From: Antedon mediterranea
Taxonomy: Eukaryota; Animalia; Echinodermata
Length of the DNA: 64,000 nt
NCBI RefSeq assembly: GCF_964355755.1
Contig: NC_092671.1
Location: forward strand, 8,494,001-8,558,000
Reading direction: 5' to 3'
This document shows positions 8,901 through 61,300 of the stretch, piece after piece. The notes under the pieces were generated by a model. That model was not told the origin of the DNA, did no database searches, and was given only the letters and a program-made list of their open reading frames with translations. Positions within the stretch are counted from its first letter, which is position 1. Every line of letters starts with the position of its first letter. A program made the translations under genes and the position numbers.

Positions 8901-9470
8901 AGTGGTATTCGTGGCCTTGGAAATAGCCCGGGAAAAGTACTTTTCTTTCCACTTTTTCAATATTGTTATCAAACATCATAATTTAATTATATCTATAGCA
9001 AGGTTATTGTTATCAATTATGTAACAATTTTAAACACTCACACACTCATTTAAAACTTTTGATTAAAACTCCATACCTCCATGCTCCAACAGTTTGATTT
9101 TAGTAGAGATAATACGATATACCAACATTAACACATTATGGTCCTCTGAAGCATTGTTGACATTATTTGTTGTTGGTCTCAATTAAACGTAACATAAATT
9201 ACTACGATTTCTGTTTTATCAACAACATCCTTTTACCATAACCCCATAAACCAACATTAGTAGAGACTTAATATACAGGACTGTCACTTGCCTTACCAAT
9301 TTACACGTCTGGTCAAATACCATTTTAATACCAAATCAAAGTAAACCAACACACATTCATAATTAATGTATTACTATATAGTCTGATTAGACTTTTAGTA
9401 AGTAGACCTATTATTTGTTATACAAATATTGACATTTCTTCTTACGTTTCGTAAATATAACATTACTTAC

Positions 9471-10067
9471 CATTGCATCCGAAGTATTTGAACTTGTTTC
9501 CAAAGTTTCTAACTCATTTCCGTCACTGTTCGATTTTTCAACTTGTAACAATCTCTCTAACTTTTCAATGTATTCGATGGCATTTCGCAAAATTTCCACT
9601 TTTGGAAGGCGCTGATTTGGATTTGCACAAGTATGTCGCTTTAGAGCCTCAAATGCTTCGTTAACTTTTCTTAACCGTCTTCTTTCTCTCATTGTTGCTG
9701 CTTTTCTCTTGTCCATAGCAACGTTTTTTCGTTTACACGCTTTACAAGCCCACAACAAACATCGTCTTTCTCCTTGCCCAGGATATCCAGGGGCCAATAC
9801 ATGTTCCATGTCCTCCTCCCTATGACCGCCTTCTGATCCGGTGTCAGGGATGTGTTCAAGGGAATAACAAGAACCAGGGGTGCGTGGATGTGTCGATTGG
9901 TGTACACTATCATGGTGATATCCGTTTGAGTATACCGAGTTAACATTACCGTGGTATCCCGAAACATCGGTGTTAGCATTGAAATCATCATAGTAACCCA
10001 TTGTCTGCATATCTGAATATCTACAACTACTCCGCATCGGCTCCATAGCTTCCATTGTCTGCATCAT
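9471..10067 (-). CDS. MyoD: Myogenic regulatory factor (MyoD/SUM-1-like bHLH), coding exon 1; downstream exons not located in window
   Basis: Cys/His motif EHVLAP...[13 protein letters not shown] followed by the MRF b[27 protein letters not shown]...[18 protein letters not shown]. Donor ATG|gtaagt at 9471/9470. ATG 10067 is preferred because a TATA box lies at about 10222-10227. Confidence 0.95.
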
Positions 10068-10219
10068 AAGCCCTGCCGTTTTTACTTTCACACACGCAGA
10101 CCGTTTAAAAACACTACGACATGAAGTCCCGGTGCGACCTAGAGGAAGAGCGTTATTATCTCGCTTACATCTACCTAACCACTGGTGGCTTGATTTCATA
10201 TCTGCCAACCAGACCTAGG

Positions 10220-28238: not shown

Positions 28239-31200
28239 ATGCGACGAAATTCTGGAAGTTCATTTAGTGACTTGAGCATTAATTTGTTCCGGTCTCCAAA
28301 ACACGGAGGGGGGCACAACCCAGGGCGGCGAAATTCGGCGATGCCCATTCTGCAGCAGTCTGAGTTTGCGACGACAAAGACACAGCAGTTGCTAGGATTA
28401 GGATTCAATCATGAATGGGATAGGTACGTCTTATAGGTAACACTTAGATTTTCTTTTTATTTATGTTTAAACAATTTGGTAATCTCCCCTATGGTTTTAG
28501 TATTGTTATAATTGTTCAAAACACTTGGACTTTAAACTCTCTTGATTTACACCTCTGATAAGATTTGTCGAGGTGTGCCAACCTTGATAAGCATCAGCAC
28601 ACGGACGGACACTGGATCGGCTGTTATATCCTATTATACAACATATAATTAGATATTAATACGTACTCAATACTGTGTGAATGCAGGTGTAAACATTATA
28701 TTATGTTAAATAGTTAATACAATCAAACGAATGGTATTATATTACAAGCTCTTGACGTCTCGACCATGATGTTGTTTTCGAGCCATGGACTTGCAGGATA
28801 CTGTAGCTTAACCAACCGACCGACCGACCGACCAACCAACCGACCGACATGACCTGTAGAGTCGCGTTGCACATGAATAAAAAGATAGGGCCTACTAATG
28901 ATATTATTTTTCAAACGAACCTTTAGAATAACTCCTATGATACAGTTGTAACTTGTGACTCTGTAACATGGAACTTTCATAAGTTACATACAAATCAGAT
29001 CATTGACTCCTATGACAGTTGTGACGACATGTGACACTGTAACATGGAACAGTATGTATAGTATGATACAGCTATAGAGTGTATAATTATTAAACGTATG
29101 CATAATTACAGCCTAGTTAGTGTTATCAACTCGTGTTGAAAAAGGCTCGTTGGCATGTATTATTTCTAATGAACGTATGGACATTAATTAGGTATCTATT
29201 CTTAAATGAAATCTGATCATGAAGTAAAAAGTAAATTCGATTCGATTACTACACGGTGAGCTTATTTACATTGTAACGATGGTCTTATAGGATAGTTGAT
29301 ACAAACAGAGAGAAGAGGTAAAGACCACGTGAAACATTATTATTTCTATAAAAATAAATCATAACCAACAACGGAAATAGAATTTGTCAAGGAAAATCAT
29401 TGATTGCATAATAAGTAGTATTTAGTCCGATGGATTTGTGTGGAGTAGCCTAAGACATTTTAATCTCTGTACACTATCAAACTAGTTTGACAAAAAAGTG
29501 TGATGTGCTTAAATATGGTAGTGATATGATTAAATATGGTAGTGATATGACATCCATGATGCGGCCCATCCATGGGCCGCATCATTTGTCACATAAAGTT
29601 TGATAGTGTAAAAAGAGCTTTAGACATAATAGAAATCACGAACATCATGGACCAACAAAGCCCGCTTCTTAGTCGACATGTTCATCTCAACCCATGGCAA
29701 TAACGATATAAAAACGACATTAAAATCGGTTCGTTTTTAGATTTTCGCAATTTTATTGAGAATAACGAGACGCATGCGCGTGCATTCAACTGCTAGTGTG
29801 AAAACTTCACAAGTTTAAAACTTTTTTAAATTGGGGTATTCACAAAATTATAGTACTGTAAAAAATGAACTCGTTTTATAAACTTAATATGGAAAGCAGA
29901 ATGTGACATTAAGTCATTCATTTAGTATCTGTCTCTCTCGGAGATGAGATTTTGCAACGATTTAACGATTTTATACCAAACATTGTAGTATCACATTGCT
30001 CAAAGCTTTCTTACAAAGCCCGCTTCTTAGTCGACATGTTCATCTCAACCCATGGCAATAACGATATAAAAACGACATTAAAATCGGTTCGTTTTTAGAT
30101 TTTCGCAATTTGATTGAGAATAACGAGACGCATGCGCGTGCATTCAACTGCTAGTGTGATAACTTCACAAGTTTAAAACTTTTTTAAATTGGGGTATTCA
30201 CAAAATTATAGTACTGTAAAAAATGAACTCGTTTTATAAACTTAATATGGAAAGCAGAATGTGACATTAAGTCATTCATTTAGTATCTGTCTCTCTCGGA
30301 AATGAGATTTTGCAACGATTTAACGATTTTATACCAAACATTATAGTATCACATTGCTCAAAGCTTTCTTACAAATTCAACTAAACATATTAGCCTAATT
30401 TCTTTTAAAAAAATTCAAAGATGATGACACAATCATATGTAACTGTATGTAAACATAATCATTTTCATGCAATACCAGAAGTTTCAAACCTATAGGGAGC
30501 ATTTTGGAACACTGCATTATCGTATTATGATAATTTTGTATCTTTCAGTGTTCAAAGAGCTGTTGTTTCAGTATTCAAAGGCGAAACATTGAGACAAGGG
30601 CAGTTGGAGGAGCAGATTAGTTTAATTCGGTAGGATCATCAGAAAATACCTATAACTATAAATAGCAGCGTGGCTTAATGCTTTAAATACTGTGCAGTAA
30701 TACGGTTGTGTATTTATTATAATATACTATACGTCAGTTATGACGTAATCGCATAAAATAGAACAGTGACATTATTTTTAGCGTACTGGGTTGAAACACG
30801 GAGATAATATTTTAAATTTTCTATCGTGACGTCAATATCTCCATGGGTACCGGTAATGCACTGCTGCTGAATGTTGTTCAGAAAGAATAAACGATGATAC
30901 TGATAGTTAACCTCTGTCTAAACTAGCAAACTATTGACAATAAAATGTGCCTAAATATGGTAGTGATATGGCCAAATATGGTAGTGATATGATGCCATCG
31001 TGTCCATTGGGGAAATAACATTTTTGTCACATAAAGTGTGATAGTATAGACCAGGGAGTTGTAAAATAATTTTACAACTCCCTGGTGTAGACAGAGCGTT
31101 ACACAGCTGCACCTCCTGCACCTCGCGACACGATATCCTTACGAAAACACCCGTTTTACCCTTTGCCGTTGCATGGTCACTTATAAAAATCTGTGTATTT

Positions 31201-34200
31201 TTTTTCTTCGTTAACATTCTCGTAATATTATTTTTTTCAGTGTAGTGCTTGATTCCGATATAAGACAATTTATATGTGAATATTACAGAGTAAGTAATCT
31301 TTTCTTATTCAAACAAACAAAGTGTGTTTTGTACTATAAATAAGACTTGGTGTGTTTTTTTTTCTGTCAGAAAAACCTTCTGAAGAAATGTATGACAATT
31401 CTTGTTGGACGTATAGACGAGTCATTAACTAACGGAGGTAAGCCTACAGCTAGTATAGGTTTTAGACGGAATTTTAACTTAATACTGTATTAGCAAAAAG
31501 ATAAATATTTTGGCAAATATACCGTTTTATACGTTTACTACTCGAAAAGAACACTTCTGACATGCAAACATTAACAGCAGTATTCGTTACGCCTAATGCG
31601 TGGTTCCCACTATAGAGACGCAAAACAGGAACGTAACGCACACAACGTAAAAGTGATTTGACCAATCTAATGGCGATTATTCGGCATTGGTCGTCCTTGT
31701 GTTGCGTTTCTCTGTGGGAACCAACTTTTAAGCAAGGAAGGGGACTCTTGAAAAAGACGCGAGCTCATTATGGCAGGGATTCCAATGTAAACATAAAGAT
31801 TAAGGAAACACCGAGCATCGTGACAAATTGACAGAATAATAATTCCAAAATAGAACAATATTTAGATAGACAGTCATATACAAACATACCAGAACGTCGT
31901 ACAAACATCTCTGGATAACCTATGACCCACTATAAACGACTCTTTAAGTTATACTTAGACTTGTTTTCTCTTCATATACGTAAATCCTCACCTACGCTAC
32001 TATAAGCATATTTAAGCTAAAAAGGCGCCTACCAATAACTTTAGTTTTAATCAGCAAATTATATTATTTATATATATATATATATTTTATATTATAAGTC
32101 ACCAGATAATGATCGACGTTACTACATGCATACGAACAATCTATAGGCCTAGGCCTAACAATTTCAATCTAATTTCTTACTGAAGATGATTTTTTTATGC
32201 AGCCTGTATTATTTTATACAAACATCGATGGCATAATCATACCCATTATCAACTTGAATGCTTTTGAACATTAACATTAATATAGTGCGGCCCATTTCTA
32301 TGAAAAGCTCATAATCAGCGGCGCTTCACATACACCCATTAAATGTTTTTTTAAACTGATAATATTCATTCAAATGTTTAATGTAACATTGAAGTAATTC
32401 ATTTTAGCATTCAATGAAATCAACAATTATACAAGTACCCAGTATATAATAAGTCACTTAAATACAAAGTTTTTCATAGCTATAATGGCTTATATATAAC
32501 ATTTATCTGACCGTCGACGTCAATTGTAAAACCTCTCCAACGTAAGCATTATCTATGGCAGCAGTAACATACATTAACTAAATCATTATTATTGTTAAGC
32601 TACACAAATATCATTCGTCTGAAATTCGAAATTCACAGTATCATCACCAAAGACATGCGATTAGCGTATGCAGTATATTTATATATAATATAAACACATT
32701 AGGCATAGAACATTAATTCTAAACCGCCCGGTGATATACAGAAATGTAATTAATTAATTTTAAACGATAAGATGAGGAAATCGGTGAGAATGAGAAAAAG
32801 TCGGCCCATCCCAGATTCGAACCCGGAACCTTCTGCTTGATATGTATATATGAATATCCGTCTAAGAATTAAATCTGTAATGTATTTGTCTGCTAATCTT
32901 ATCTTCATTCAAGATGCCTTGCTCGACACTATAGCAGATATTTGGGTTAAATTCTATACAGAAGTTCTACCAACTCTACAAGCCATATTCATTCCAGTTC
33001 GGGTACGTATTAAATATTAAAGGTTTTTAATTGATCGATAGGCAATCGATCAACTAAAGATTCATAAACCAACTAATAATTTGGCGGACCGAACAACCAA
33101 CCGAGCAACTGACCAGCAAACCACCACTAGTGACTACATCATAGAGTAAAGCTCCGTCTACACTATAAAAAAAGTGCGATGTGCCCAAATATGGTAGTGA
33201 TATGACATCATCAAGTCCATATATGGGCACATCACATTTGTTTTGTCACAAAGTTTGATAGTGTAGACAGAGTTTTTAGACCGGCTGACTAGATGATCAA
33301 ACTACCGACTAATCAATAAACTGATAACTGGTATCATGATGACGTTGGGATAAAAACGTAATACAGTTATTAGTTATGATATTGAACATTTTATTAGACT
33401 CTTTTTCCTATTGTTATTTCTACTCTGAAAGACCTACGAACCAAAAATATAAAATGTAATAGGAATTTGACTGAATAAATGATTTGCACATTTGTAGAAT
33501 ACCTTTTGCACATTTAACGTCAAAACTGATCGTTTTTACATTTAACGTCGTGATGTTGGCACATTTGCAGGTTATACATTTTTACAGATTTGCACATTTG
33601 AAGGTAAAATGTTTGCACAAATGTGGTTGTTTGCACATTTGAAAGTAAAATGTTTGCACAAATGTGGTTGTTTGCACAAATGTGACTTTTTGCACATTTC
33701 ACGGCTCCACAGTTCCCACCTCTCCGACAAGAGGGTTATATATCGACTATCTAGCTAGGAGCGCGCTTGACTAAACATATTTTCTATTAGTCCCCAGGTC
33801 TTTCAATCAAACAGCTAACCTTATTAGCATTTCGAGATCACATGGTTTTAGCAAGATATGAAGCAATAAAAGGTAAACCTACAGAAAAAAACAATTTTCA
33901 TTAATACATACGGGTATTTTTTATTCAGAACAAATAATAATACAAAAGCTGAATTGACGTCGTTAAAATGTATACTTAAAATATAAATCAAAAACACTAA
34001 TCATTAATTACATTTTATATACAAATTATTTATCAGATTTTAAAAGTTGAATATACCATATTGACTAGAGACCCCCTTTAAGGGGTCACATGAAAAGAAC
34101 CAATATAGGTTTTAACACGACCAACTGACGCGCAGGTCAGTTTGTGCCGATAGAAAATAATAAATTACCCGCACTGTTTACCGTGCAGATAGCCAATTGT

Positions 34201-35211: not shown

Positions 35212-36790
35212 TTACAGACCACACATTGTCATCTTACATATATCACATTTGAAAATCTTTATTCCGTTGTGTTCCACTTTCATGTGATCTTCACAAGTCT
35301 TTAAGGGTTTACCGTGAAAACTACGCATGTGTCGTTGAAAAGTTTCTTCAGTCAAACAATACTTATTTCTACACATAGAACAACGTATTTTTGTTCCTTT
35401 TTTAGCTGCAACTTTGCCCTTGCGATTTCTCCCGTCCGTTCTTTCTTTAACTGGTACTGCAAGTTTATTCTTGTGGCGTATCATAATATGATTATCTAAC
35501 TTGAATTTGTTTTCGAAATTCCTTCTGCACGCAGGCCAATCACATTGAAATGGCTTCGTTTCGTCATGCACGAGTTTCATGTGTCTTTTCAGTTTTTCTG
35601 CATTACTTAAGACTTTCTGGCAAACATTGCACTCCACTTCTTTGTGAACAGAGTTCATGTGCTTTTTAAAAATGACTCTATTCAGAAAGACTTCTTCACA
35701 TAGTGAACAAATTAACTCGTTTTTTTCCGGCACTGCATCTCTGTGTGTTTTCATATGGATATCTAACAGTGATTTATTTTCGAAAATGTCATCGCATCTA
35801 TAACATCTCAGCTTATGCTTATAATCTTTAGGTGTCGTATCTATGTGCATGCGTGTCATATGCGTTTTAAGACATCCAGCACTTAGACAAGTTTTACCAC
35901 AAATGTCACAAGTTTTAGGATCTTTGCGAAATTTATAGCCCCTTCTTTTCCCCTTTGCAGATTGAGAATGAGTGACAAGATGATGATCTAGATCTGATAA
36001 CATTCGAAATGAATGTCCACATTTTTTACAGTCGAAAGGCAAATTGTCCATTTTATGAACATCATTCTGATGACATTTTACCTGAAACTCTGTTTTGAAT
36101 AACTTTTTGCACACGACGCACTCAAAAGAAATTCCTGCATCTTTATTGGCATGCATTTCCAAGTGGTATTTATAGAGAACGGGCTGATAGAAAACCGAAA
36201 CAGGCTTACATATTGTACAGGTTAATATCCGTTTCGGGTGATACTTTATAATATGATCATGCAGTTCTATAGAATTTGTAAATCCAGCAGAAGTACAAAA
36301 ACGACAAGGTTTAAAAGAAAGTTTAGTTTTAATACTTTGGCAAGTATGACCAATCAATGAATTCTCGGTGGCAAACGTTTTCCGACATTTTTCGCAATTG
36401 AACAAGGAAGGTCTCCTTCCCGTGTCAGCGTCATGCCCAACACTATCACTATCAACATAACTTTTAGAGGTACTAGGGAGATGCTCATTACATATTTTTG
36501 CTTTGTAACTTTTCTGTATAGCGTCTTTAGCTTGGCGTGACTTTTTTTTTTTTCTAGTCAATCCTAGAGGTTGAATCATTTTTCTTTGATTCTTTTCAAC
36601 CAACCTACCATCATCACGAACATCATAGGTAACTACATTTGCATTTATGGCGCAATCAGGTTCAACTACGTGTTTCACCATTCGACTGCGGTTACATATG
36701 GCAACATGCTTTTTGTATTTCTTTCTATTCAGCCATTCACCACCACAGGATGCACAATTGAACGTGTAGTCTGCCTTTTCAACGTCATCC
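35212..36790 (-). CDS. C2H2 zinc-finger protein, large exon with about 12 fingers; upstream exons unresolved
   Basis: Repeated CxxC...HxxxH motifs. Phase-2 acceptor tattttctag|G at 36791/36790. The last finger is cut short (CDICKMTMCGL*) at a possible donor gtaag near 35215. Confidence 0.85.
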
Positions 36791-37596
36791 CTAGAAAATA
36801 TCAAATACAACGAGTAAAATGATTGATACACAAGCCACACCCGATATCTTTGGTTAGTTAATGAAAATTGAGTTAAACCCCATTACAAATGACTCCAAGA
36901 ACCTTGGTAGATTTAGACTGTTTTACGGTTAAATTGCCAATTTGAAGAGAGACATTTATCAGCCTTTGCATATAGTGACGGTACGCCACAATAAAAAATT
37001 CAGCTGTCATCATTAAGATATAACATGTTACTGGACATCCATTGCCTCACTTTGATGATTTGTGAGGATGGCTAACTATTTGCTTGGTTCAATATGTGCG
37101 CACACTTGCAATCAATAGTATACGTGTTGCAGCACCACTCAACGAATTGGATAGACTTACAACACATAATTTGAGATGGTTTGTAACAGCGTTACAAAAC
37201 TTCTGAATAACAAATTCAATAAATACAACTGAGACAGAAAGTAAATATTTTACATTACTGTACTTATATATAATTAATGTTCTTTGCCTGATTTGTTTAT
37301 ATATATATAATTATATATATATATAAATCCAAAGGCAAATTACTGAAAAAAATGACAATGCTGTGGGTATCAGTGGCTGGATCTCAATGGAGATACAAAA
37401 AAAAAAGCGAAAAGCTAAATCAAAACGATAAAGTAAACAGCCAGAAAAGTTAGCAGAGCTTTCGGGCAACACTAGCCCTTCATCTCATTGAGCTTGTGCA
37501 CTCTTTGTGTTCATAATCAGTGTACCATGTCCCGCATACCTGGCTCAGCCTATATATTGTGCCAGTTCTGCGGTACATTTCATTTCGAAACCTGAG

Positions 37597-37641
37597 CTGC
37601 ACTGACGAGATCTAATAAGCTCGAAACAGTACTGTCTGCAG
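37597..37641 (+). ncRNA. Minimal type I hammerhead ribozyme
   Basis: Stem I CTGCA/TGCAG, core CTGACGA, short stem II, GAAA, stem III C-AGTACT-G with a palindromic loop, and a GTC cleavage triplet ending at 37636. Confidence 0.78.
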
Positions 37642-37665
37642 ATTGGATATATATATATCCAATCT

Positions 37666-37990
37666 ACTCAAGCATATAGTAGCGCAAACAAAAAATGCAA
37701 CCTCTGCCTCAAAGAGAAATTATTTATCATCCGCCACCCTGAATTATCGACATTAAACAAACGTAACGAACTTGTGTCCGCCTGCCGGCACAGAAAGAAA
37801 GCATTGTTACATAACAGCTGACATTCCAAAACATATCACCTGTAAATGCTAATTCTACAAGTAAATGCGCTTATAAGCAACGTTGTAATTGATTGTTCTC
37901 ATTATAGTCTCCTGATGAGTGAGTTGCACGACTCACAAAACAAGCCTGTAGAGAACTGTAGAACTGTAGTTTTTACTTCTTTTCCAGACT
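37666..37990 (+). mobile_element. Penelope-like retroelement 3' remnant (GIY-YIG C-terminus plus pLTR)
   Basis: AYSSANKKCNLCLKEKLFIIRHPELSTLNKRNELVSACRHRKKALL* (37666-37821), followed by a hammerhead-like motif and (TA)n. Confidence 0.8.
37903..37960 (+). ncRNA. Hammerhead ribozyme-like motif with a core mutation
   Basis: TCTC-CTGATGA-GTGAGT(TGCACG)ACTCAC-AAAAC-AAGCCT-GTA-GAGA; the GAAA box reads AAAA. Confidence 0.65.
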
Positions 37991-38055
37991 TAACGTATAT
38001 TTTAGCTTTACTTTACCGTATTGAGCACTTTTTAGACGGTTACATTGAACTGAAC

Positions 38056-38086
<31 letters not shown>

Positions 38087-38280
38087 ATGTTCTTTGCCTA
38101 GTGCGTTTATATATATATATATATAAATCCAAAGGCAAATTACTGAAAAAAATGACAATGCTGTGGGTATATATATATATATATATATATATAAACACAA
38201 CAGGCATAGAAATAAATTCCAAACCGCCCGGTGATACACTGAAAATTATTTCATTTATTTTTTAAACGATATATATATAT

Positions 38281-38465
38281 GAAAAGAACGTTGAGTTTCT
38301 CGACGTTCCGATCAATATACTTTGATCGTCCTCAGGAGTAAGATTAAGAAGGATCAAAGTATATTGATCAAAATGTCGAGAAACTCAACATTCTTTCCAG
38401 AACTATATATACGTGGTGTACCGCATAACAACATTTGATTTCGCCATGCAAAACTTCAAACAATA
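38281..38465. repeat. Inverted pair of pLTR-like sequences, each with a degenerate minimal hammerhead motif
   Basis: Minus strand 38299-38338 reads CTC-CTGAGGA-CGATCAA(AGTATA)TTGATCG-GAAC-GTC-GAG. A mirror copy lies on the plus strand at 38345-38400. Confidence 0.6.
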
Positions 38466-38762
38466 TGTAAAATCATTATGTAATATAAGTTTGTAATTCC
38501 TGTATTATTTTAAAAACTAAATTTAATGAAAATGAGCCAGTGAAGAAAGGTCAGATTATTTGAAATTGTAGCCTACATAGCACAATGAAACAACTGATAT
38601 TTTTTAAGAATTCTTATTTTATAATGTTAAATTATCTTTAAAAATAATTTACCAACTTAAATTGTTTACATGAATAATTGGGTCTACCATATTACATCAT
38701 AATCACTTTAACAGTAACTGTAAGAAACAGAACATTTGAGTGAAAACATAAATTGCGAATTG

Positions 38763-39155
38763 TTATGTCTTCCTTCTTCGATGTTTCTTTGGAAGTACCA
38801 CCGTTAGGTGTACCATATTACATCGCAACCGATTAAAAGGCATGCACGTCTGGGGGTTATATTTGTTCTGGTGTATTTCCATGTGAATATCAAATACCGA
38901 TTTCTCTCCGAATGTCATCTTACATTTACCACATTTGAACAAATTGTTGTGTTTCGTGTTCATTTTAAAAAACAAAGAGTTTCACCACAAAGTTCTTAAA
39001 AGTCATTTGCATTTAATACTAGTACTTCTTCTTTGTTAACCACCATTCGACTGCGGTTACATATGGCAACATGTTCCTTGAATTTTTTTTCATTCAACCA
39101 TTCACCACCACAGGATGCACATTTTAATATGTCATAGAATGTATCAACGTCAACC
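38763..39155 (-). pseudogene. Degenerate, internally deleted duplicate of the 35-36 kb zinc-finger exon
   Basis: Same acceptor context and near-identical CASCGGEWLN..K.HVAICNRSRMV. A stop at 38996 follows, then a finger KCGKCKMTFGEKSVFDIHMEIH resembling the C-terminal end of the long exon. Confidence 0.7.
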
Positions 39156-39502
39156 CTAGAAAATATTAAATACAACGTATAAAATGCCTTGATACTAACT
39201 GATAAACTCCACAAACGTGCCATCGACCATTTGATTAGCTGAAAACTAAATTAAATGCCTTGATACACAACACAATCCATACCGATGTAAACCATATATT
39301 TTGATGAGCTACAGTAACGTCATTGTTTTATTTCGCCAGCAATGGCATATGGACATTTCAGACATGCAAAAAATGGAAACGCATAACAAATAATCAAATA
39401 TACATTAAATAAATAAATCCTTTAATTTAATGTAGAATTAACACATATTTTACTGATTCGAATTACAATGAGGCTGCATTTTTCTTCAATCTATAATGTT
39501 AA

Positions 39503-39853
39503 AGATGTATTGTCCCCCTGAAAAAATAATTCTAACAAAATTTGTTGTTGAATATTCCATTTTAGTGCAACATAATAGTTATCCACTTTGACGAAAAATT
39601 GGATCTAAAAAAAAAATGTATTTACCTGAAAAAAAAATGTAATTTAGAGCAAAATATGATCAAATTGGTTGCCAGCCAATGGATTTTTGGTTGAAATTTA
39701 CCATTTATTTTGTCATTTTATAAGTGAAAACATGATTTTTTTTCATTTAATTTTCTATGGAAGTGATTAACTTTATTAAAACTACAAAATAACATATTCA
39801 AAGTCTGATTTAATTAATCTTTATTTTTCATGTTTTTGGGGGACAATACATCT
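39503..39853. mobile_element. MITE with TTAA TSD (Kolobok-like AG termini)
   Basis: TTAA|AGATGTATTGTCCCCC ... GGGGGACAATACATCT|TTAA. Confidence 0.85.
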
Positions 39854-39944
39854 TTAACATTTCATGATTATTTCAAATAAAGCAGTGGATTTTCTGTACA
39901 ACACAAAATCACAAAATAACGGTTTGACGCCCATATAGAGTATA

Positions 39945-40509
39945 ATACCCCTTTCACACCAAAACTCCGGAGTGTCTCCGGAGACACCCCGGGGTTTATG
40001 ACCATTCAAAACGTCGAGAAACTCCGGAGATACCCTTTCACACCAACCTAGCAACACCAGGGTTCATAAAATAAAATTGTAAATGTCGCCCTCTAGTTTG
40101 TTTGTTTACATAGCGACGATCGTTAGAATCATTTTAATTAATAATATTTTAAATTTAAAAATTACTTTCAAAGTCTCAGAAGTAATATAATGTTTTATTG
40201 ATACTACATATTATTTTCTAGACCCGCTATATATTTTGTACAAATATTTAAAGTATTTTGAAATAAAACTAAAGCAATGAGTGATCGTGTGAGGATGACC
40301 TTTTGACCCGAAACACTCCGGATTTGATGTTGGTACCTTTCACACCAAAACACCGGGGTGTCCCCGCAGTTCGCTCTCCGGAGAATGTTCAGCTGTTCAA
40401 CCCCGCAGTTTTAAACTCCGGAGTTGCTTGATTTTACCTTTCACACCAAACAGCGGGGCGTCAACTCCGGGGTGTCTCCGGAGTTTTGCTTTTGGTGTGA
40501 AAGGGGTAT
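39945..40509. mobile_element. MITE with ATACCCCTTTCACACCAAAA TIRs and many ACTCCGGAG subterminal repeats
   Basis: Perfect 20-bp TIRs flanked by TA, with internal copies of CCTTTCACACCAA. Confidence 0.85.
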
Positions 40510-40923
40510 TATATATATATGGTCTTCAAACCATTATTTTGCGAAATTATATATTTCACAAAATTGTATATTTTACATTGTATACCTATATTATAGACAT
40601 ACAATGCAGATTTTATTATAATGATGATCACACTGAAAATGTTTTAAATATATATCAACAATTAGGGTATAAAATAATGTGTCTCTGCTGGAGGGCCTAC
40701 TCTGGCCAAATTGCATTGTTCAATCTACATCTACTGGAACAATGTGTTATTAATTATATAGTATTAGAATATTGATAATAAGTTTTGCAGTACACAAGGT
40801 AATATTCTTTTTAAAAAGTAAGTACGTACGATCGAACCCAAACTTACCTACTTCCCTTTTTAAAGGAAGTTAGTACTTGTAATATCACAATGTTACTACA
40901 GTAAATTAGAATACATTATTAAA

Positions 40924-43900
40924 TCAGCTATTAGTATTTCCATCCTTGTTACTTGTGCACATATTTGGATCAAAGTTTCTTCTTAAAGCTGCTAACATTG
41001 TTTGAAATTCTTTAGATCTCCGCTCCTCGGCAAGCCTTTTATCTTCTAAATCTTGTTTCATAAAATCCAATAAGCCAGTCATATACCTTTCTTCTGCTTT
41101 CTCTAGCCTCTTTTCTTGCCTTCTTTTGCTTGCTGAAGACGTAAATGTTCTAGTATTTCTCCAAGCTATCCCATCCATTTTTCTAGTCAAAATTAGAAAT
41201 GACTTTTCTGACAAAAGAGTTTCTTTCTCTCTTTTTTCATCTAAAATAAATGAAAATAAATACAGTTTAATTAAGCAGAATGTTAATAATACTAATTTCA
41301 AAAGTATTTTGAATAATTTCAAAAGTAGTTTTAATCAAGTGCAATTGTAAACAAATATTTAAGAAAAAATTAATTAACCTTTGTTATCTTGAAATTGCTG
41401 CTTAGACCTTTCTAGGAGACTTCTAAGAACAATAGATTCTTTCTCACCCTCTCTTGATACATTTTGTTTGTTACCAGGTTTGGTGTTGTTATGTCCAAGT
41501 TGCTGCAACAATAACGGTTGATCTTTGCTGCCATGTTGAAAGTTTTCAAGTTTGTTTTCTGGTTGTAAGTTTAGAAACTGCTGAATGTCTTGTTTCTGTA
41601 AACTGAAATGTCCTTCCTCGTTTTCATCTACATTAAATTGCTGGCAAAACATATGTTGCTGATCTTTCTCTTGTATTTTCCCATGTTGCTGTATGTTGAC
41701 AGATTTTTGTTTATTTTTTTGAAAATCTATTAAAAAACAGAAACAAAATATCATACAAATAATTAGATGTTCATAAGCTATATATTTCAACTAAATAAAT
41801 ACTTTTGAGATGGCAAAGTTTATAAATAACATAATTCAACAGCAAGTATTGGTAACATGAACAATAAAGGTTTTTTAAACATACCCTCATCTTTAAAAGA
41901 ACTACTGACATTTTCCTCTAATGAGTTGTCTAGCGAAGAATTTAATAGTTCCTTCATTTTATAGTAAAATGGAAATGTTGCCAAGACGTCTGTTTCTGAC
42001 GGTGGACCAGTATCATTAAAAACCTTGTATGCTCTCTTCAGATCTTTTATTTTACGCTGAATCTGAATCCAATTTCTATAAAAAGGACCGCATTCTGCCA
42101 ACCGTCTTGCCATTTCAACAAATGTACCCTTCTTAGTTTTATGCGAGTCTAATACACTTTTGATTTCAGGTTGAGCCCAAATGTCTAAAAGATGGTAGAC
42201 TTCTATATCTGCCCAATTGAATGCTCTTCTTCTATTTAAAGTTTGATCTTGCTTAGTTTCCATTTGGTTTCTATTCATCTCTTCAGCTTCATTTTTATTT
42301 TCATTGACCCAATTTTGCTGAATGTTTCCATGTTCTCTCATATGTTGCCACTTATTGTCATTTTTCTCCTCTTCTTTGCTATTAGGTTGCATGGTGGTAT
42401 GTTGGTTTCTGTTATCAAGTGATTTACTACACATAATCTGCTCTTCAATATCATCAAACTCCTTTATTTCATCAAAAACTTCTCCATCGTTAGGATATTG
42501 AGAACTCACTTCATCACTGAGTACAAAGGAAAGCTCAAAACCTACTTCTATAAAAAACAAGACATTGTTATACTACAAAAGCATTAATTGCTTACCTCTA
42601 ACCCATAGTTAAATTTTCAAAATTAGAAAATAATTTTTGTTACAAATGCCTGGTTCTGTGAGGTTTTTGGATATATACAAATGGTACAAATACGTCAGGT
42701 GATGAAATAGAAAATATACTTACTATCATCTCCAACTGACTCATCAACATTCTCCGGAAAATATGAAGAGTATGGTTTTATTAAACCTTTCATTTTGTAG
42801 TAAAATGGAAAAGTTCTAAAGATTTCAACTTCCGATGGTGGACCAGCATCATTGAAAACCTTGTACGCTCTTCTTAGATCTTTTATTTTGCGCTGAATCT
42901 GAATCCAATTTCTATCATAAGGACCACAGTCTGCCAACCGTCTAGCAATTTCAACAAAGGTACCTTTCTTTGTTTCATGTGAGTCTATTACCCTTTTGAT
43001 TTCTGGTTCACACCAAATGTTTAAAAGGTGGTTGACTTCTTTTTCTGTCCAAAGAATTCGTTTTTGTTTTGAAGTCTTTGAATCATCTTCTCTCATCTCA
43101 TTACTTTCATCCACAATTTGATCTTCCTGATTTTCTTCTTTATTGTCTGGTTCAGTATTTTCCTGCTGTTTGTCAAGTAGCTGTTTACTATCTAAAAGCT
43201 TTTCATTTTCAAGCTCTTCATTTTCATCAAAAACTTCTTCGTCTCCGCCCTGATAATTTTCTTCATCACTTAAGATGTGAGAGTGCTCTAAACCTGAAAT
43301 CATAATTTAATTGTAGTTTTGTTATGTGGTGGTACACATTTTGTTTTAGATTCCAAAAAAAATTTGGAACACCCTCAATGTTAATACCACAGTCAGAGGT
43401 TGATTACTGCCCTCACCCATCTATTTAGCTTGCCCTTTAAAGACTAATAACTAATAAAAGTATGATGATTTAGTAAATGTTTCAAAAATGTTTAGATTTT
43501 TTTTGTTTTTAAGAACAAAGGTAATTAGCTAGTCAGTTTTAATATTACAAACATGTACAGAACATAAAAAGAAACTTACTATCATCTTCAATGAAAGTAT
43601 CAACATTGTCAGGAACATCTGAAGAGAATTTCATTAAACCTTTCATTTTGTAGTAAAATGGAAACGTTCTAAAGATTTCAACTTCCGATGGTGGACCAGC
43701 TTCACTGAAAACCTTGAACGTTCTTCTTAGATCTTTTATTTTACGCTGAATCTGAATCCAATTTCTATCATAAGGACCACAGTCTGCCAACCGTCTTGCA
43801 ATTTTAACAAATGTACCTTTCTTTGCTTCATTTGATTCTATTACTCTTTTGATATCAGGTTCACACCAAATGTCTAAAAGAAGGTGCACTTCTTTTTCTG

Positions 43901-46900
43901 TCCAATTGACTCTCTTCTGTTTTGAGAGATCTTCTTTCATTTTACTACTTTCAAGTTGGTTAACATCATTCTGGTGTAACTGCGGACTTAACTGTTTACA
44001 ATCTAAAAGGATCACTTCACTATCAATCTCTTCATTTTCATCCAAAATATCATCCTCCTGATATGGATAACTGTCTTCATCACTTAAAGCTGAAATCACA
44101 ATTTAATTTTGATTTATTTATTACAATAATACAACTTATCTACAGTAGTGCTTTCTGTCAAACAAAGCACACAAAAACAATATACTTTACAAATTCCGGA
44201 ACACAACCTACCATCATTCATTGAAGTATTGGCATTGTCTTTTATGCTGTCCGATACATCTGCTAAAGGCTTCTTTATCAACTCTTTCATTTTGAAGTAA
44301 AATGGAAAAACTTTCACAATTTCAGCTTCTGGTCTATCCTGATATAGCTTGTATAATCTCCTCAGGTCTTTTACTTTGTGCTGGATCTGAATCCAGTTTC
44401 TAATATAAGGACCACGATCTCCTAACCTTTTGGCCATTTCAGCCCAAGCCTTTGTTTTGTTTTTATGAGTTGACTCTGTAATGTGTTTTATATCTGGTTC
44501 ACTCCAGACGTCTATAAGGTGATTGATTTCAGTATCTCTCCAATTGATATCTCGTTTTCTTTTATGAGTAGACTCCACTACACTCGAATCAGTCAATAGC
44601 TGCTCTTCAATCTCGCTATTATCAAATGGTTGCTCAATCTCTGGATGCTGATCAAATGTTTCATCTTCATCTTGGCCAAATTCTTCATCACTCACAATAT
44701 CTTCAAAATCTGAAATTATATGGTAAATGTTGCAAATATACAAATATAAATTAACATTAAAAAATTATAAATAAAACAAAAGCTGCAGTTCTGTTTTTAT
44801 TTTTGATTTAAGACATTTAAGAAGATAGTAAATCTGGATAACTAAATCAATAATCATTGGTCAATCATTGGTTACCAAGGCTACTATTGTAAATTAAATA
44901 AAACAATAGTTACACTAAATAAAAATAGATTAAAAAAAAACAATACCTTCTTCTTCTACAGCAGTTCCGGTGTTATCCAGAACATCCGATGATGATTGCT
45001 TAAATAATTCTTGGAGTTTGTAATAAAATGGAAACACCCTCATAATTTCAAATTCTGATTTCGGATTCTCATTACAGAGCCTAAAGGATTGTCTCAAACC
45101 TTTAATTTTAACCTGAACTTGCATCCATGTTCGCTTATGAGGACTGCAAGTCAACCGCTTGGCAATTTCATTCCAGGCCCACTTTTTACTGCTCTTTCGA
45201 TGGGATTCAATTACCCTCCTTATTTTAGGTTCACTCCAAATTTCTATCAGATTATAGGTTTCGGTATCTGACCACCTTGACGCCCTTCTCTTTTTATTTA
45301 AAGATCTTCTTTCAAGTTGGTCCTTATTGGCTAATGGTGCTTCATCTTGACGCTGCGTAACAAAGCTTGCGCTCTCAATGTTTGTGTTTCTTCTCAATCT
45401 ATCAAACTCATTATCTGTATCCGATTGTTGTTCGTCCTCATCGAGGAAACTTTCTTCATCACTTAGAATACAAGAATCTGCGTCAAAAAATATAAAACTA
45501 ATGTAAATATTAAATAACACAGTATTTCATAATATTGCCAAGAACTCATTTTATTTGTGAAGGATAATAAAAGATCAGAGTTTAAAATTACGAGTAATTA
45601 ACAAAACGATATAGAAAATTAAAAACTTACCATCGTCGTCATCATCTTGTACCAGACTCTTGATATTTTCTTCTAATGAGCTGTTACCAAGTACATCCGA
45701 GAGGGACTTCTTCATTAAATTTTGAATTTTGTGATAAAATGGAAATACCTTCAAGACTTCAGTTTCTGAACGTGGACCAGAATAATGACAAATCTTGTAT
45801 GCTGCCCTCAGGTCTTTAACTTTTTGCTTGACTTGCTTCCAGGTCTTATTATGACATCTTGAAGATAACCTTTGTGCAATTTCAGCCCAAACAAATTGTT
45901 TACTAACATTTTTACTTGATTCAGTTATACTCCTTATTTCAGGTTGGCTCCAGATTTCAATGAGGTCATTGATTTCAAAATCTGTCCAGTAGGAAGTCAT
46001 TTTTCTTTTTGAAATTAAGTTAGCATTATCCTCATCAATATTGTCATCAGCTTTACTTAAAAATAAAGCTTGTACTTCTTTTGCAATTATGGCGCTAGTT
46101 TCACACTGATTACCATTTTTGCTTGTATTCTGAACTTCTGTACCGTTATCATCTTCTATTACTTCACATTCTGTACTTTCATCATTATCTTTTTGTTCAG
46201 TAAGTGTTTCTTCTAGAAAAACCAGAAATATTAGCTTCAATAGATGCTCAAACTAATCAAACATATTTCTTTCTTAAGAACAACTAATAATCAGAATAAA
46301 ATTCAACTCCCTGTAATAATCAGAATAAAATTCAACTCCCTGTAATAATCACATCTACTGCACAGTAATATGCCTAACAATACAATATATTCCACTGTTT
46401 CAATATACGTCTTTACTTTGAAATCTGTAATTAACTATAAGGCCAACCCTAAACCAAAATTGTTTTCAGCCTGCAAGTACTAATGTATGTTCATCACTAG
46501 GTTTCAGATTATGTCAGTGTCACTGTCACTACTTCCCTAATGAAGCATACAAATGCCAAATGTCACCTAATACTATAGTTTTTTCCCATTAGGTCAACTT
46601 ACCTAAGTTTTCTTCTAACAAAGCAATTTCTTTGGCTGATGAGTCCACCATCAATTCGTGGATTCTGGTGCTGAATTGGCGATTTATAGTGAAGAAAGGC
46701 CCTCTGTACATTTGTAGTAAGTTCTTGATTTTAGAGCGAATTTCAATTTCAGGTCTCTCAGTGTGTCCAAGCTCAACCAACCTTAAGCGAATTTTGTTCC
46801 AAACATCTTTTGTATTTTTGTTGGATGTTAATTCATTTTTTATTTCAGACTCACTCCAAATATCTATAAGGTGATGAGTTTCATCATCTGACCATGTAGC

Positions 46901-46918
46901 AGCCTCCTTCTTCGCCAT
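40924..46918 (-). CDS. Multi-Myb/SANT-like (trihelix, MSANTD/Harbinger-type) protein: 9 exons, 7 DNA-binding domains, Q-rich linker, C-terminal coiled coil, about 1444 aa
   Basis: Exons 46603-46918, 45631-46212, 44947-45477, 44212-44709, 43580-44089, 42724-43293, 41885-42547, 41379-41726 and 40924-41240. Every intron is GT-AG phase 1 and the joined CDS of 4335 nt is open. Exons 1-7 each carry W.D.E...L(L/I).IW....K(I/V)K.L, ending in FPFYxK in exons 2-7. Confidence 0.88.
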
Positions 46919-47699
46919 GTTTGTTAGGCTAGGCCTAGTTTAGAATCAAATTACAGGACGTTCTGTTATTGATCATAGGTAGGTTGTTTGTTTTGTGCCG
47001 ACATGTGTTGTTATAACGCGGTTACTGACGACGCGACGGATTAGGTCAACATTGTCAATTTTTCTAGCTCCAATCAATACAGCTAACAAAAAACCTTTGC
47101 ACTATACACACTTTTAAAAATGAGATAAAATATTATTTATCTTGTGTTTATCTGTTGATATAGTGTTAAAGTGATGCAACATATTGATCTCTAAATACAG
47201 TACTTTTCGTCAATCTAAATTGTGTTATTCAAATGATATACATCAAAATGCAACCTTGGTTTAATTAATTTCACTGAGAGACATGATAAAATAAAAAGTT
47301 GTAGAACGACCAAGTGTCATTCATTTATCACTACTGTACATTACAAGCTACATTTAAGAGTATACAGTACTATTTAAAATCACATTTGTATTATTGGATT
47401 GTTAAAACTTAAAATTTAAAAATATAGTGTACAGTACTTGTACTTGTGTAGTGAGTTTTCAACAGAATTAAAATGATGTCATTTGTTTAAATGTCTACAA
47501 TACAAAGCAAGCCTGTACAGTTTGAACAAGCAGGTAAATGAAAGACAAAGAGTTATTCTGATTTTAGTGACATTCTCATTATAAACCACATTACAATCAT
47601 GAAGTTCCTTCAGACTGAATGAATGGACCCTGAGAAAATTTAATTAGTTTATACATGATTGCACTAATATGAAAAAACAAACAGCTAATAACTATATTT

Positions 47700-58329: not shown

Positions 58330-61300
58330 TTAAGTTTTTTTCCCGAGTAATCTAAGGATTCTTTTCTCTTCTGCGCTTACTTGTACTTTCATTACACCAT
58401 TATCCGCCCACCAATCAATGTTATGTTTACTTTTCTTGTGTGTTTTAAGACTGACTTTATGATTAAAAGTTTTTTGGCAAATGTTACATTCATATGGCTT
58501 TTCTCCTGTGTGAATGCGCATATGTTTTGACCGATTACTGGATTGAGAAAACCTTTTCTTACACACAGGACACTCAAACCTTTTTACGGTTGCGTGCGAT
58601 TCCATGTGTACTCCAAGACGTCTCATTGAAAAGGTTTTTCCACATATCTCACATGCATACTTTTTATGAGTCAATATATGTTTACGAAGTTTACTCGGAC
58701 ACAAAAAAGTTCTTTCACACGACTTGCATGAAAATTTCTCTCGCAACTTTTGATTTGCATGCACTTCCATGTGTTTCTGGAATCTTGATGGAGACTGCAA
58801 AACAGCCGAGCACTCCTGACATTTATATGGAAAGTGACCACTAAACTTATCATGTGTGCGTAGTAAATGAATATCAGCTTCAGTTAATGACTTGTATCTT
58901 TTTTCACAATGAGGGCATTTGTATGGTAAATGTTCACCACTATGAATCTGATTCTCATGAAGTTGCAGATCAGCTTCGATGCAGAAAGTTTCCTGACAGG
59001 CTTTGCATTCGTAAGAGACACTGGCTCTTTCATTCTCATGCCTTAATTGATGGCAAGCAAAATCGGTAGCACTTTGCAACTTCTGATTACATTCAGTACA
59101 AATATATTTTTTATTTAATACTATCCGCTTTGTTTTTATAATTTCACCATTTCTGTTTATTCGGGCAAATACACATGTACCACTTGTTACTTGCTTTTCA
59201 ATTTCAGCAGCAATCTCATTTTCTTGAAGTCTTCTAGCAGTTTTTTCGTCAATTTCACTGGCTGAAATTTCAGTACCATCTTGGTTGATTATGTGTTCAT
59301 GGTCATCATTTTCATTTTTATCATTGGGATTGATGGGCAGTGTTTCATCAATTTTTTGAACATCATTTTTGTCAATGGAATCAACTTGATTGTCACCGCC
59401 ACTTTCGCCGTTGCATAGTTCTTTGATGCCATCCTTTTCTTCTACATTATCTACGACACTGTTAGAAAGTGTTTCATTAGCATCAATTTCCTGGAGATCA
59501 AGTTTGCCAGTGGTACTGTCAAGATTTACTTCAATTCCATCCATTTGATTATCATGGTCTTTGTCAGCTTTGCAGTTGTTACCATTCTCTTCACTGTTAG
59601 AGGTAGTTTCATCAACATTAACTTCATGGAGATCAAGTTTGCCAGTGGTACTTTCAAGATTTACTTCAATGCCATCCATTTGATTCGCATTGTCTTTGTC
59701 AGTTTTGCAGTTGTTACCATTCTCTTCACTGTTAGAAGTAGTTCCATCAACATTAACTTCCTGGAGATCAGTTTTGCCAGTGGTACTGTCAAGAGTTACT
59801 TCAATTCCATCCATTTGATTATCATGGTCTTTGTCAGCTTTACAGTTGTTACCATTCTCTTCACTGTTAGAAGTAGTTCCATCAACATTAACTTCCTGGA
59901 GATCAGTTTTGCCAGTGGTACTGTCAAGGTTTACTTCAATGCCATCCATTTGATTATCATGGTCTTTGTCAACTTTGCAGTTGTTACCATTCTCTTCACT
60001 ATTAGAAGGAGTTTCATAAACATCAACTCCCTGGACATCAAGTTTGCCAGCAGTACTGTCAAGATTTAATTCAATGCCATCAATTTGATAATCATGGTCT
60101 CTGTCAGCTTTGCAGTTGTTACCATTCTCTTCACTGTTAGAAGAAGTTTCATCAACATCAACTTCCTGGACATCTGTTTTGCTAGCGGTACTGTCAAGTT
60201 TTACTTCAATGCCATCAATTTGGTTATCCTTGTCAGTTTTGCCGTTGCTACTCTCTTCTTCATTATTTGAAAGTGTTTCAACAACATCAACTTCCTGGAC
60301 AATTGTACTGTGAAATACTTCATCTTTAGAACGATTTTTACCTTTGTTAACTTTATTACATGAATGCTTAATAAGATTTATCAGTACTTTGAATGATTTG
60401 TCACAGCAGTAACAAGCATAATGCTCATTGTACAGCTCAACATCAGATTCAGATTTAATAGTTGAAGACTCGCCAGACTTTTCTGCCGAGAGTTCATTCT
60501 CGCTATCTGAAGACTCTTTAAATTCATAATCACTATCTTTGTGGTTGCATTTTAACCTATGACGTTCCAATTGTGCCATGTTTGTAAATTCTCTACCACA
60601 ATCACAATAATTTACTTCGCTGTCATCATCCATAAATTCTTCATCTATGCTCTCTTCTGTTGCCATATAGGTATAACTTCTTGGTTTAAGTACTCTTTTA
60701 GGTCTAGTAGAACCAGAGTTTGCATTGACAGAACCGGCATTCTTGGAACTGTGCTTTCTTTTAGGATGTTTCACTCGTGTTTTTGAGACCCTTACAGAAG
60801 TACTTAGCTCTTCTCTTCTTGATCTCTTAGAATCTGTGTTAGAACTGCCACTTTTGCTCTCAAGAGAACATGCACGAGAATGGTTATCAATTATTATCTG
60901 TATTCTCTGTAAATAATAAAAGAACTATATTAGATTCTGCCATGTACAGAAGGATTTTGCCATGTACAGAAGGATTTTTCCATTTAGGAAAACTGTGTAG
61001 TAATGGATCCAATAAAAATCGTCCAAAGTCATTAATGTTTTGCTAAAAATAGTGCAACTTTCTTACTGCGGCCATTCGTTTCAATTGTAGATCACTAAGT
61101 ACCATTTTCTTTTCTTTGGTTTGCTTTGGTGTTATCTTCCTTGCTTCTTCTTCGTCCATCTTAGTTTGCATCTGTGTAAGACATGACAATCATACAGTAA
61201 ATGAAAACATTTTTTTTTCAGATGATGTTTTATTATACCTGTATATTGGTTTAATAAAATTAATAACGGACAGCCTTTTTAACAATGATCATAGCTACAG

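Follow-up and report, generated by a model that had tools for sequence, protein, structure and literature searches.

The window examined here, a 64,000-nt stretch of the Antedon mediterranea genome (NC_092671.1; 33% G+C; all coordinates are positions within it), contains an accumulation of hammerhead ribozyme (HHR) motifs in TA repeats next to a large zinc-finger exon, and raises the questions of how these motifs came to lie together, whether the copies present are likely to cleave, and whether they affect the neighboring gene. An earlier note, made from the sequence alone, proposed that several unrelated Penelope or retrozyme families had repeatedly entered one microsatellite. The first part of this is retained, as the HHR families are mutually unrelated and one of them is the end of a Penelope-like element (PLE), but there is no tandem retrozyme array. 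We consider it highly probable that the region consists of a (TA)n tract with ten pieces of five families in it, likely delivered in successive insertions by TA-targeting PLE enzymes, and with hammerheads that, in these copies, are predicted to be inactive.

Organization of the TA tract

Ten short pieces, belonging to five repeat families and mostly linked via (TA)n, make up the segment from 37270 to 38460. From left to right, the flank is followed by (TA)4, a SINE tail (plus strand), TA, an F1 element (minus) abutting an F2 element (plus), TA, and piece D (plus), and then by (TA)14, a second SINE tail (plus), (TA)9, an F1 end (minus), (TA)13, a third SINE tail (minus), (TA)6, and an H arm (minus) abutting another H arm (plus). 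The spacer at 37298–37325 is a (TA)n run with one interruption, and seven of the ten TA runs of at least 10 nt in the whole window fall inside the cluster. The motifs are where they had been reported (an HHR at 37597–37641, a core at 37912, an inverted pair, and a minus-strand motif at 37456–37484), although they were described as up to five different hammerheads all separated by (TA)n, whereas the HHR families number four, one of which is the inverted pair, and TA is absent both from the join at 37484 and between the inverted H arms. Three SINE tails, a second short F1 copy (38126–38167), and an H tail reaching ~38460 had been overlooked.

A type I descriptor with one core mismatch allowed has three matches in the 64-kb window, and the cluster accounts for all of them. 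Dinucleotide shuffling of the region (300 shuffles) yields no match at all, a partly circular result in that the descriptor was drawn up with the motifs already known. The Rfam hammerhead search suggested previously recovers 37585–37658 (Hammerhead_HH9, E 0.0068) at 25.4 bits, short of the gathering score of 52, and none of the other motifs. A search of 37260–38480 for non-circularly permuted hammerheads (type SGC etc., PMC10085705) gives no solution for any of the three exact cores, with helix cut-offs strict enough to overlook F2's mismatched type I fold as well. There is no head-to-tail tandem HHR array within the window, and no hammerhead in the cluster has a partner of the same family on the same strand; scattered partial tandems of F1 and F2 are all that the contigs of public runs contain in this respect. 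The five families are mutually unrelated, with 12 of 13 pairwise alignments matched by 59–485 of 500 shuffles, and the sole alignment above its shuffles (0/500) joins the SINE body to the third SINE tail. The F1, D, H, and SINE tails likewise show no homology above shuffles, and the TGCCT that they have in common before the TA end was spotted post hoc.

Parts of 37326–38058 are matched by 20 public sequencing runs, best in organisms A and B, and seven distinct runs, each in the form of contigs, were compared. One run (X4) has the left flank (37050–37284) without any difference and may be the source sample rather than independent support. Another run (X5), which may be RNA, extends over both of the non-coding flanks. 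Relative to flank depths of 291 and 296 in X4, summed contig depth, which gives an order of magnitude and not a copy number, is roughly 8,600–20,000x for F1 (two bins), 1,900x for F2, 190x for D, 1,450x for the third SINE tail, 1,100x for the H arm, and 1,340x for the H tail; all five families are thus repeated and far deeper than the flanks. For three of the hammerheads, other copies in the contigs have the canonical base or the missing core. One organism B contig has the right junction in common with the window (38431–38619) and another diverges from the window at 37256, its remaining 89 letters no longer following it, a weak hint that the cluster was filled stepwise; neither an empty site nor a contig spanning the cluster is among the joints and contigs listed for the seven runs. 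An assignment of the left flank to an old LINE was rejected, as it had no Pfam support.

Hammerhead families and SINE-like tails

The minus-strand motif, previously described as the weaker one, belongs to the most abundant family, in a copy that breaks off within the catalytic core. This 5′-truncated F1 element (37326–37484, minus strand) carries the remnant of a minimal HHR (37484–37456), with an extra A after the core, helix II GGGC/GCCC, GAAA, the palindrome AGCU, and a CUC site at 37456, and the truncation lies at 37484. Contig loose ends behind this position have the same first nine letters in all seven runs, restoring CUGAUGA and helix I, and diverge beyond them (agreement 0.54–0.61); such contig ends, a weak basis, suggest that F1 is a ~170-nt element beginning at its hammerhead. 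Through them the family-level minimal HHR pattern is seen (CUGANGA, an extra nucleotide, a G-C closed helix II, GAAA, a palindrome, and UH). The last 42 nt of F1 recur at 38126–38167 (minus strand), identical to 37326–37367 and with (TA)n on either side. Scans for the F1 pattern returned no match in viral contigs, two chance-like matches in prokaryote genomes, which were rejected, and three in metagenomes, two of them GC-rich coding sequence and the third a hammerhead (locus L002) with the F1 core and helix II but another helix I and loop II, which constitutes one case of covariation. At L002 (633–2040) the F1-type core is ~280 nt past a 361-codon frame without a Pfam family, the first part of which may resemble a PLE N terminus.

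F2 (37485–37646, plus strand) is a 3′ end with a type I HHR at 37597–37641, whose cut site was correctly given as C37636 (GUC). The window copy is 5′-truncated, because family sequence continues upstream past 37485 (visible as 24–30 letters only in the contigs), and in the window it ends at 37485 and contains no ORF. Helix III is the Hydra-type ACAG-UA-CUGU listed for Penelope-1_SK, and with its cgaa context is as in the Penelope-1_SK and -2_SK rows when compared by eye. The motif had been called intact-looking and its core is perfect, but U37611 lies opposite C37620 in helix II, a mismatch private to the window copy: other copies have A at 37620 (~99–100% of depth in seven of seven runs), completing a 5-bp helix II. 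Because C37620 breaks helix II, a misfold ~6 kcal/mol below the active fold is predicted (minimum −8.3 vs −2.3 kcal/mol for the active fold), with a helix I pair probability of 0.0 in context. Slow or protein-assisted cleavage of F2 nevertheless may occur, since the core is perfect and in silico folding of the homodimer yields an extended helix III (−27.0 vs −16.6 kcal/mol). The F2 pattern has no match in viral contigs. At 37484, where F1 meets F2, two different HHR families stand head-to-head, both 5′-truncated and with one common base. At the other end of F2, a perfect 26-nt palindrome (37640–37665) is centered on the (TA)n run at 37647–37658, and its 7 nt of perfect inverted flank is the longest among 24 TA runs (the next is 6); this would fit priming by fold-back at the TA end and a subsequent 4-base match to D.

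Piece D (37662–38058, plus strand) comprises the last ~52 endonuclease codons, a stop codon (37819–37821), the 3′ UTR, an HHR at 37908–37954 that falls in the 3′ pLTR, and a tail, and is flanked by TA runs at 37647–37658 and 38059–38086 (one copy). The motif at 37903–37960 was rightly described as core-mutated and as following a Penelope ORF end: CUGAUGA at 37912 is accompanied by AAAA for GAAA at 37937–37940, such that G12 is replaced by A at 37937, and the cleavage site at 37950 reads GUA. At 37937 the other copies read G, in 100% of depth in six of seven runs and at a depth of 4 in the seventh (X11), so G12 was lost in the window copy. The depth of D in X7 is only ~9x that of the flank.

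The 54-residue D peptide has 99 homologues among 103 candidates, with identities up to 84%, and no Pfam family above cut-off. Hydra-clade PLEs have RWK, DKT, and CxCx5C and no N-terminal GxKF/Y, and (TA)n insertion and canonical HHRs are features of nearly all of their families, with 26 of 27 families in File S1 listed with (TA)n (Craig et al. 2021, PMC8557442). The window itself lacks the RT part, and these signatures were counted in the 14 longest of the 99 homologues (at least 690 aa, leaving out 85 shorter ones), of which 14 have DKT, 11 RWK, 13 CxCx5C, 14 CxxC before E, 14 CxH, and none GxKF/Y; a looser count over 22 homologues of at least 600 aa agrees. The window peptide carries the C-terminal CxxC and CxH of the GIY-YIG endonuclease around E and N, and the D tail motif is common to the end of Hydra-2_Amil. 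Judged by these sequence features, piece D is the 3′ end of a Hydra-clade PLE, a clade known for (TA)n insertion and hammerheads. A tblastn search of the window with four full-length homologues finds piece D only, and viral contigs contain no relatives of it. One Hydra-type RT-EN fragment (P0052) is named by its source as from the pipefish Entelurus aequoreus; the Hydra list in the available part of Craig et al. is without a vertebrate.

The inverted H arm (38281–38343, minus strand) has a minimal HHR with core CUGAGGA at 38335–38329, GGAA for GAAA, and the palindrome ACGU, and is without the family tail. The direct arm (38344–38460, plus strand, end approximate) has a more decayed core and the family tail, and differs from the inverted arm at 5 of 47 positions, from helix II onward, all of them transitions. 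The TA run at 38404–38411 belongs to the H family and is not target DNA. Positions 38269–38332 and 38347–38410 of the two arms are 84% complementary and form a very stable hairpin (z −12), in which the pair probability of the hammerhead's own helix II is 0.0. Other H copies likewise turn at 38343, joining 38400–38430 of the tail, and have loose ends before 38290; an inverted 5′-truncated arrangement with a tail on one end only is drawn for PLEs in the literature. The GGAA was expected to be private to the window copy, and the finding that no variant at 38308 (position 13, G for A) reaches at least 25% among those listed in four runs speaks against this; GGAA may be a family trait, an amplified non-canonical core, rather than damage. 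The H pattern has one match in viral contigs, which was rejected as unrelated.

The remaining pieces are ends of a SINE-like family. These are the last 25 nt at 37273–37297 (plus strand; 22/25 identical to 32717–32693; (TA)n on either side), the last 21 nt at 38087–38107 (plus strand; 18/21 identical to 32713–32693; between (TA)14 and (TA)9), and the last 75 nt at 38194–38268 (minus strand; 82% to 32693–32766; repeated). A longer copy at 32693–32845 (minus strand) is TA-rich on both sides and contains near its 5′ end the segment GGTTCGAATC, which we take to be B-box-like by the box consensus; an A box is absent from this copy, which is truncated, and ARAGORN finds no tRNA gene in it. Together with the longer copy, the three tails represent a candidate tRNA-like, TA-targeted SINE.

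Assembly of the cluster

In the favored scenario, a PLE endonuclease would nick (TA)n and the freed DNA end would prime the reverse transcription of an element RNA from close to its 3′ end; synthesis would halt early, the short cDNA would be rejoined, often via a few matching bases, and the TA repeats left on both sides would let the target survive to be hit again. Both orientations and head-to-head pairs would be expected because (TA)n is self-complementary. The literature basis consists of TA targeting and HHRs in Hydra, truncated and inverted PLE insertions, both-strand priming, and the dispensability of HHR cleavage in vitro. The last two are described for the Poseidon PLE of Anolis, which in vitro nicks AT-rich DNA with both strands extended, gives a one-sided tail upon an internal start, and does not need HHR cleavage, protein-assisted cleavage also being reported (Frangieh et al. 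2024, PMC11167929). Poseidon belongs to another PLE clade than Hydra, but a protein that extends both strands, starts internally, and needs no HHR cleavage would account for the two orientations, the head-to-head pairs, the one-sided tails, and the tolerance of dead ribozymes seen here.

The window copies of all four HHR families are damaged or truncated and are predicted not to cut: the F1 core is truncated, F2 has a helix II mismatch and misfolds, D has G12A, and H has GGAA and is locked in a hairpin. A mixed F2/D dimer was considered and rejected, since F2 and D have helix I strands that do not pair with each other. The search for a coding partner gave none for F1, F2, H, or the SINE; we infer that PLE enzymes moved all four, and infer likewise the order of the insertion events.

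A different driver for some of the pieces is somewhat unlikely, although it is the alternative that fares best. F1, H, and the SINE could have been moved by other TA-targeting machinery, either a LINE or another PLE clade such as Naiad or Neptune, leaving only D and F2 to Hydra. SINEs are normally mobilized by LINEs, the tails of F1, D, and the SINE do not align above shuffles (59–349 of 500), and Naiads too prefer (TA)n according to the literature. The minimal HHRs of F1 and H are also unlike the Hydra motifs of File S2, with no matches for either in the available part of the Craig et al. supplement. However, neither a LINE nor a Naiad partner is seen, the pieces are alike in anatomy (3′ end on TA, 5′ truncation, and TA on both sides), and a change of machinery would alter the driver and not the overall picture.

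It is unlikely, and more so than a different driver, that part of the cluster derives from local duplication, slippage, or deletion between TA runs, with the F1/F2 join a later deletion between independent insertions. The order SINE tail, TA, F1 end does occur twice, 800 nt apart, with the F1 bases identical at 45 of 45 positions, which could speak against separate insertions, and the F1/F2 join has only one common base. The two SINE tails, in contrast, differ at 4 of 21 positions, compared with an F1 part that differs at 0 of 45 (Fisher p 0.008), and each tail is 3 off the copy at 32693, which fits independent copies; moreover, local duplication cannot account for five unrelated families.

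Successive PLE insertions remain the preferred reading, and within it we offer, tentatively and with much more doubt than belief, that a PLE enzyme carries non-coding passengers in trans, namely the ~170-nt F1 starting at its hammerhead (~ten thousand copies) and a tRNA-headed SINE with a 3′ motif in common with F1, and that it primes two RNAs on both strands of one TA break, as at the F1/F2 join at 37484. If so, the SINE would be driven by a PLE and not a LINE, the join would be genomic proof of two-template insertion, and the cluster would bear on the enzyme responsible for moving small hammerhead elements and on the reason that hammerheads persist in PLEs. F1, F2, and the SINE provide concrete substrates, for which the natural single-base mutants of the window are ready controls. 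Our literature search turned up no account of a PLE-mobilized SINE, a negative that argues weakly for there being none.

F1, F2, H, the SINE, and D are new families of known kinds, although similar short families may appear in the supplement of Li et al. (2026, 10.64898/2026.07.22.740005). D resembles the Hydra PLEs of Craig et al. (PMC8557442) in its CxxC..E..N..CxH endonuclease, in homologues with RWK, DKT, and CxCx5C, in its (TA)n target, and in an HHR ~90 nt past the stop and ~110 nt before the end; it differs in being only 400 nt of 3′ end and in having lost G12, and F2 differs in having no ORF. The D family is not among the listed Hydra consensi as far as the searched part of the supplement extends. 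F1 and H resemble the minimal HHRs of PLEs (Cervera and De la Pena 2014, PMC4209133), with an additional nucleotide separating positions 9 and 10.1, G10.1-C11.1, a loopless palindromic helix III, a short helix I, and close copies on opposite strands; such HHRs do not cleave as monomers and cleave at low levels as dimers in that account. Unlike these, no parent PLE is found, helix II of F1 has 4 bp rather than 7–8, H reads GGAA, and the copies of F1 and H seem to begin 8–10 nt before the core. The likeness to animal non-LTR retrozymes (Cervera and De la Pena 2020, PMC7229834; Li et al. 2026, 10.64898/2026.07.22.740005), which are proposed to use PLE enzymes and commonly occur as monomers, is in being short non-coding HHR elements of high copy number, whereas the cluster is without a tandem array and without the canonical helix I/II motif. 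The cluster exemplifies known biology, in which TA-targeting PLEs regenerate their own target and turn microsatellites into piles of element ends.

The zinc-finger gene and the rest of the window

The neighboring gene is represented by a large C2H2 zinc-finger exon (35212–36790, minus strand; Pfam zf-C2H2_4, E 8e-21), and because it starts at a splice-acceptor-like site, further exons would lie upstream, at higher coordinates, which would probably place the cluster in an intron. The earlier note placed the cluster between two zinc-finger exons and suggested an effect on transcript processing. The second of these (38763–39155, minus strand) is a decayed duplicate of the exon start (83% over 158 nt), with a stop after 52 codons and beyond it an out-of-frame finger remnant. 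The two best motifs, F2 (37597) and D (37908), are antisense to the gene; F1 and the inverted H arm are sense, F1 being without the start of its core and H having G for A13 and sitting in the arm-to-arm hairpin. An effect on transcript processing is not supported by this arrangement, as the two best motifs are antisense and the presumed second exon is a decayed duplicate. That the cluster is a co-opted regulatory module, in which cleavage of the zinc-finger pre-mRNA, or of an antisense RNA, by at least one hammerhead tunes the gene, is very improbable: it lies 0.5–1.7 kb upstream of the acceptor, probably in an intron, the F2 core is perfect, and the stable H hairpin could affect the pre-mRNA, but F2 and D are antisense, the sense motifs are truncated or hairpin-locked, the private changes in the F2 helix II pair and D G12 are those expected from decay and not selection, and the left edge of the cluster seems different in organism B. 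The cluster is likely ordinary PLE debris rather than a regulator of its neighbor, and matters little for the zinc-finger gene.

Several other features were noted in the window. An exon of a myogenic regulatory factor (MyoD family; Pfam Basic and HLH) is at 9411–10214 (minus strand) and points to a bilaterian host, and 41820–46939 (minus strand) contains a tandem series of seven or more exons or genes, all with a Myb/SANT-like (MADF-type) domain, PF13837 being found in the one scanned. A second, long zinc-finger exon (58330–60924, minus strand) includes a coding 135-nt tandem repeat of 6.3 copies (59457–60299), and a 358-nt tandem duplication at 29655–30375 is 98% identical. To the right of the cluster there is an inverted pair (39495–39523 and 39833–39861), and short GC-rich, MITE-like inverted repeats are clustered at 39950–40510.
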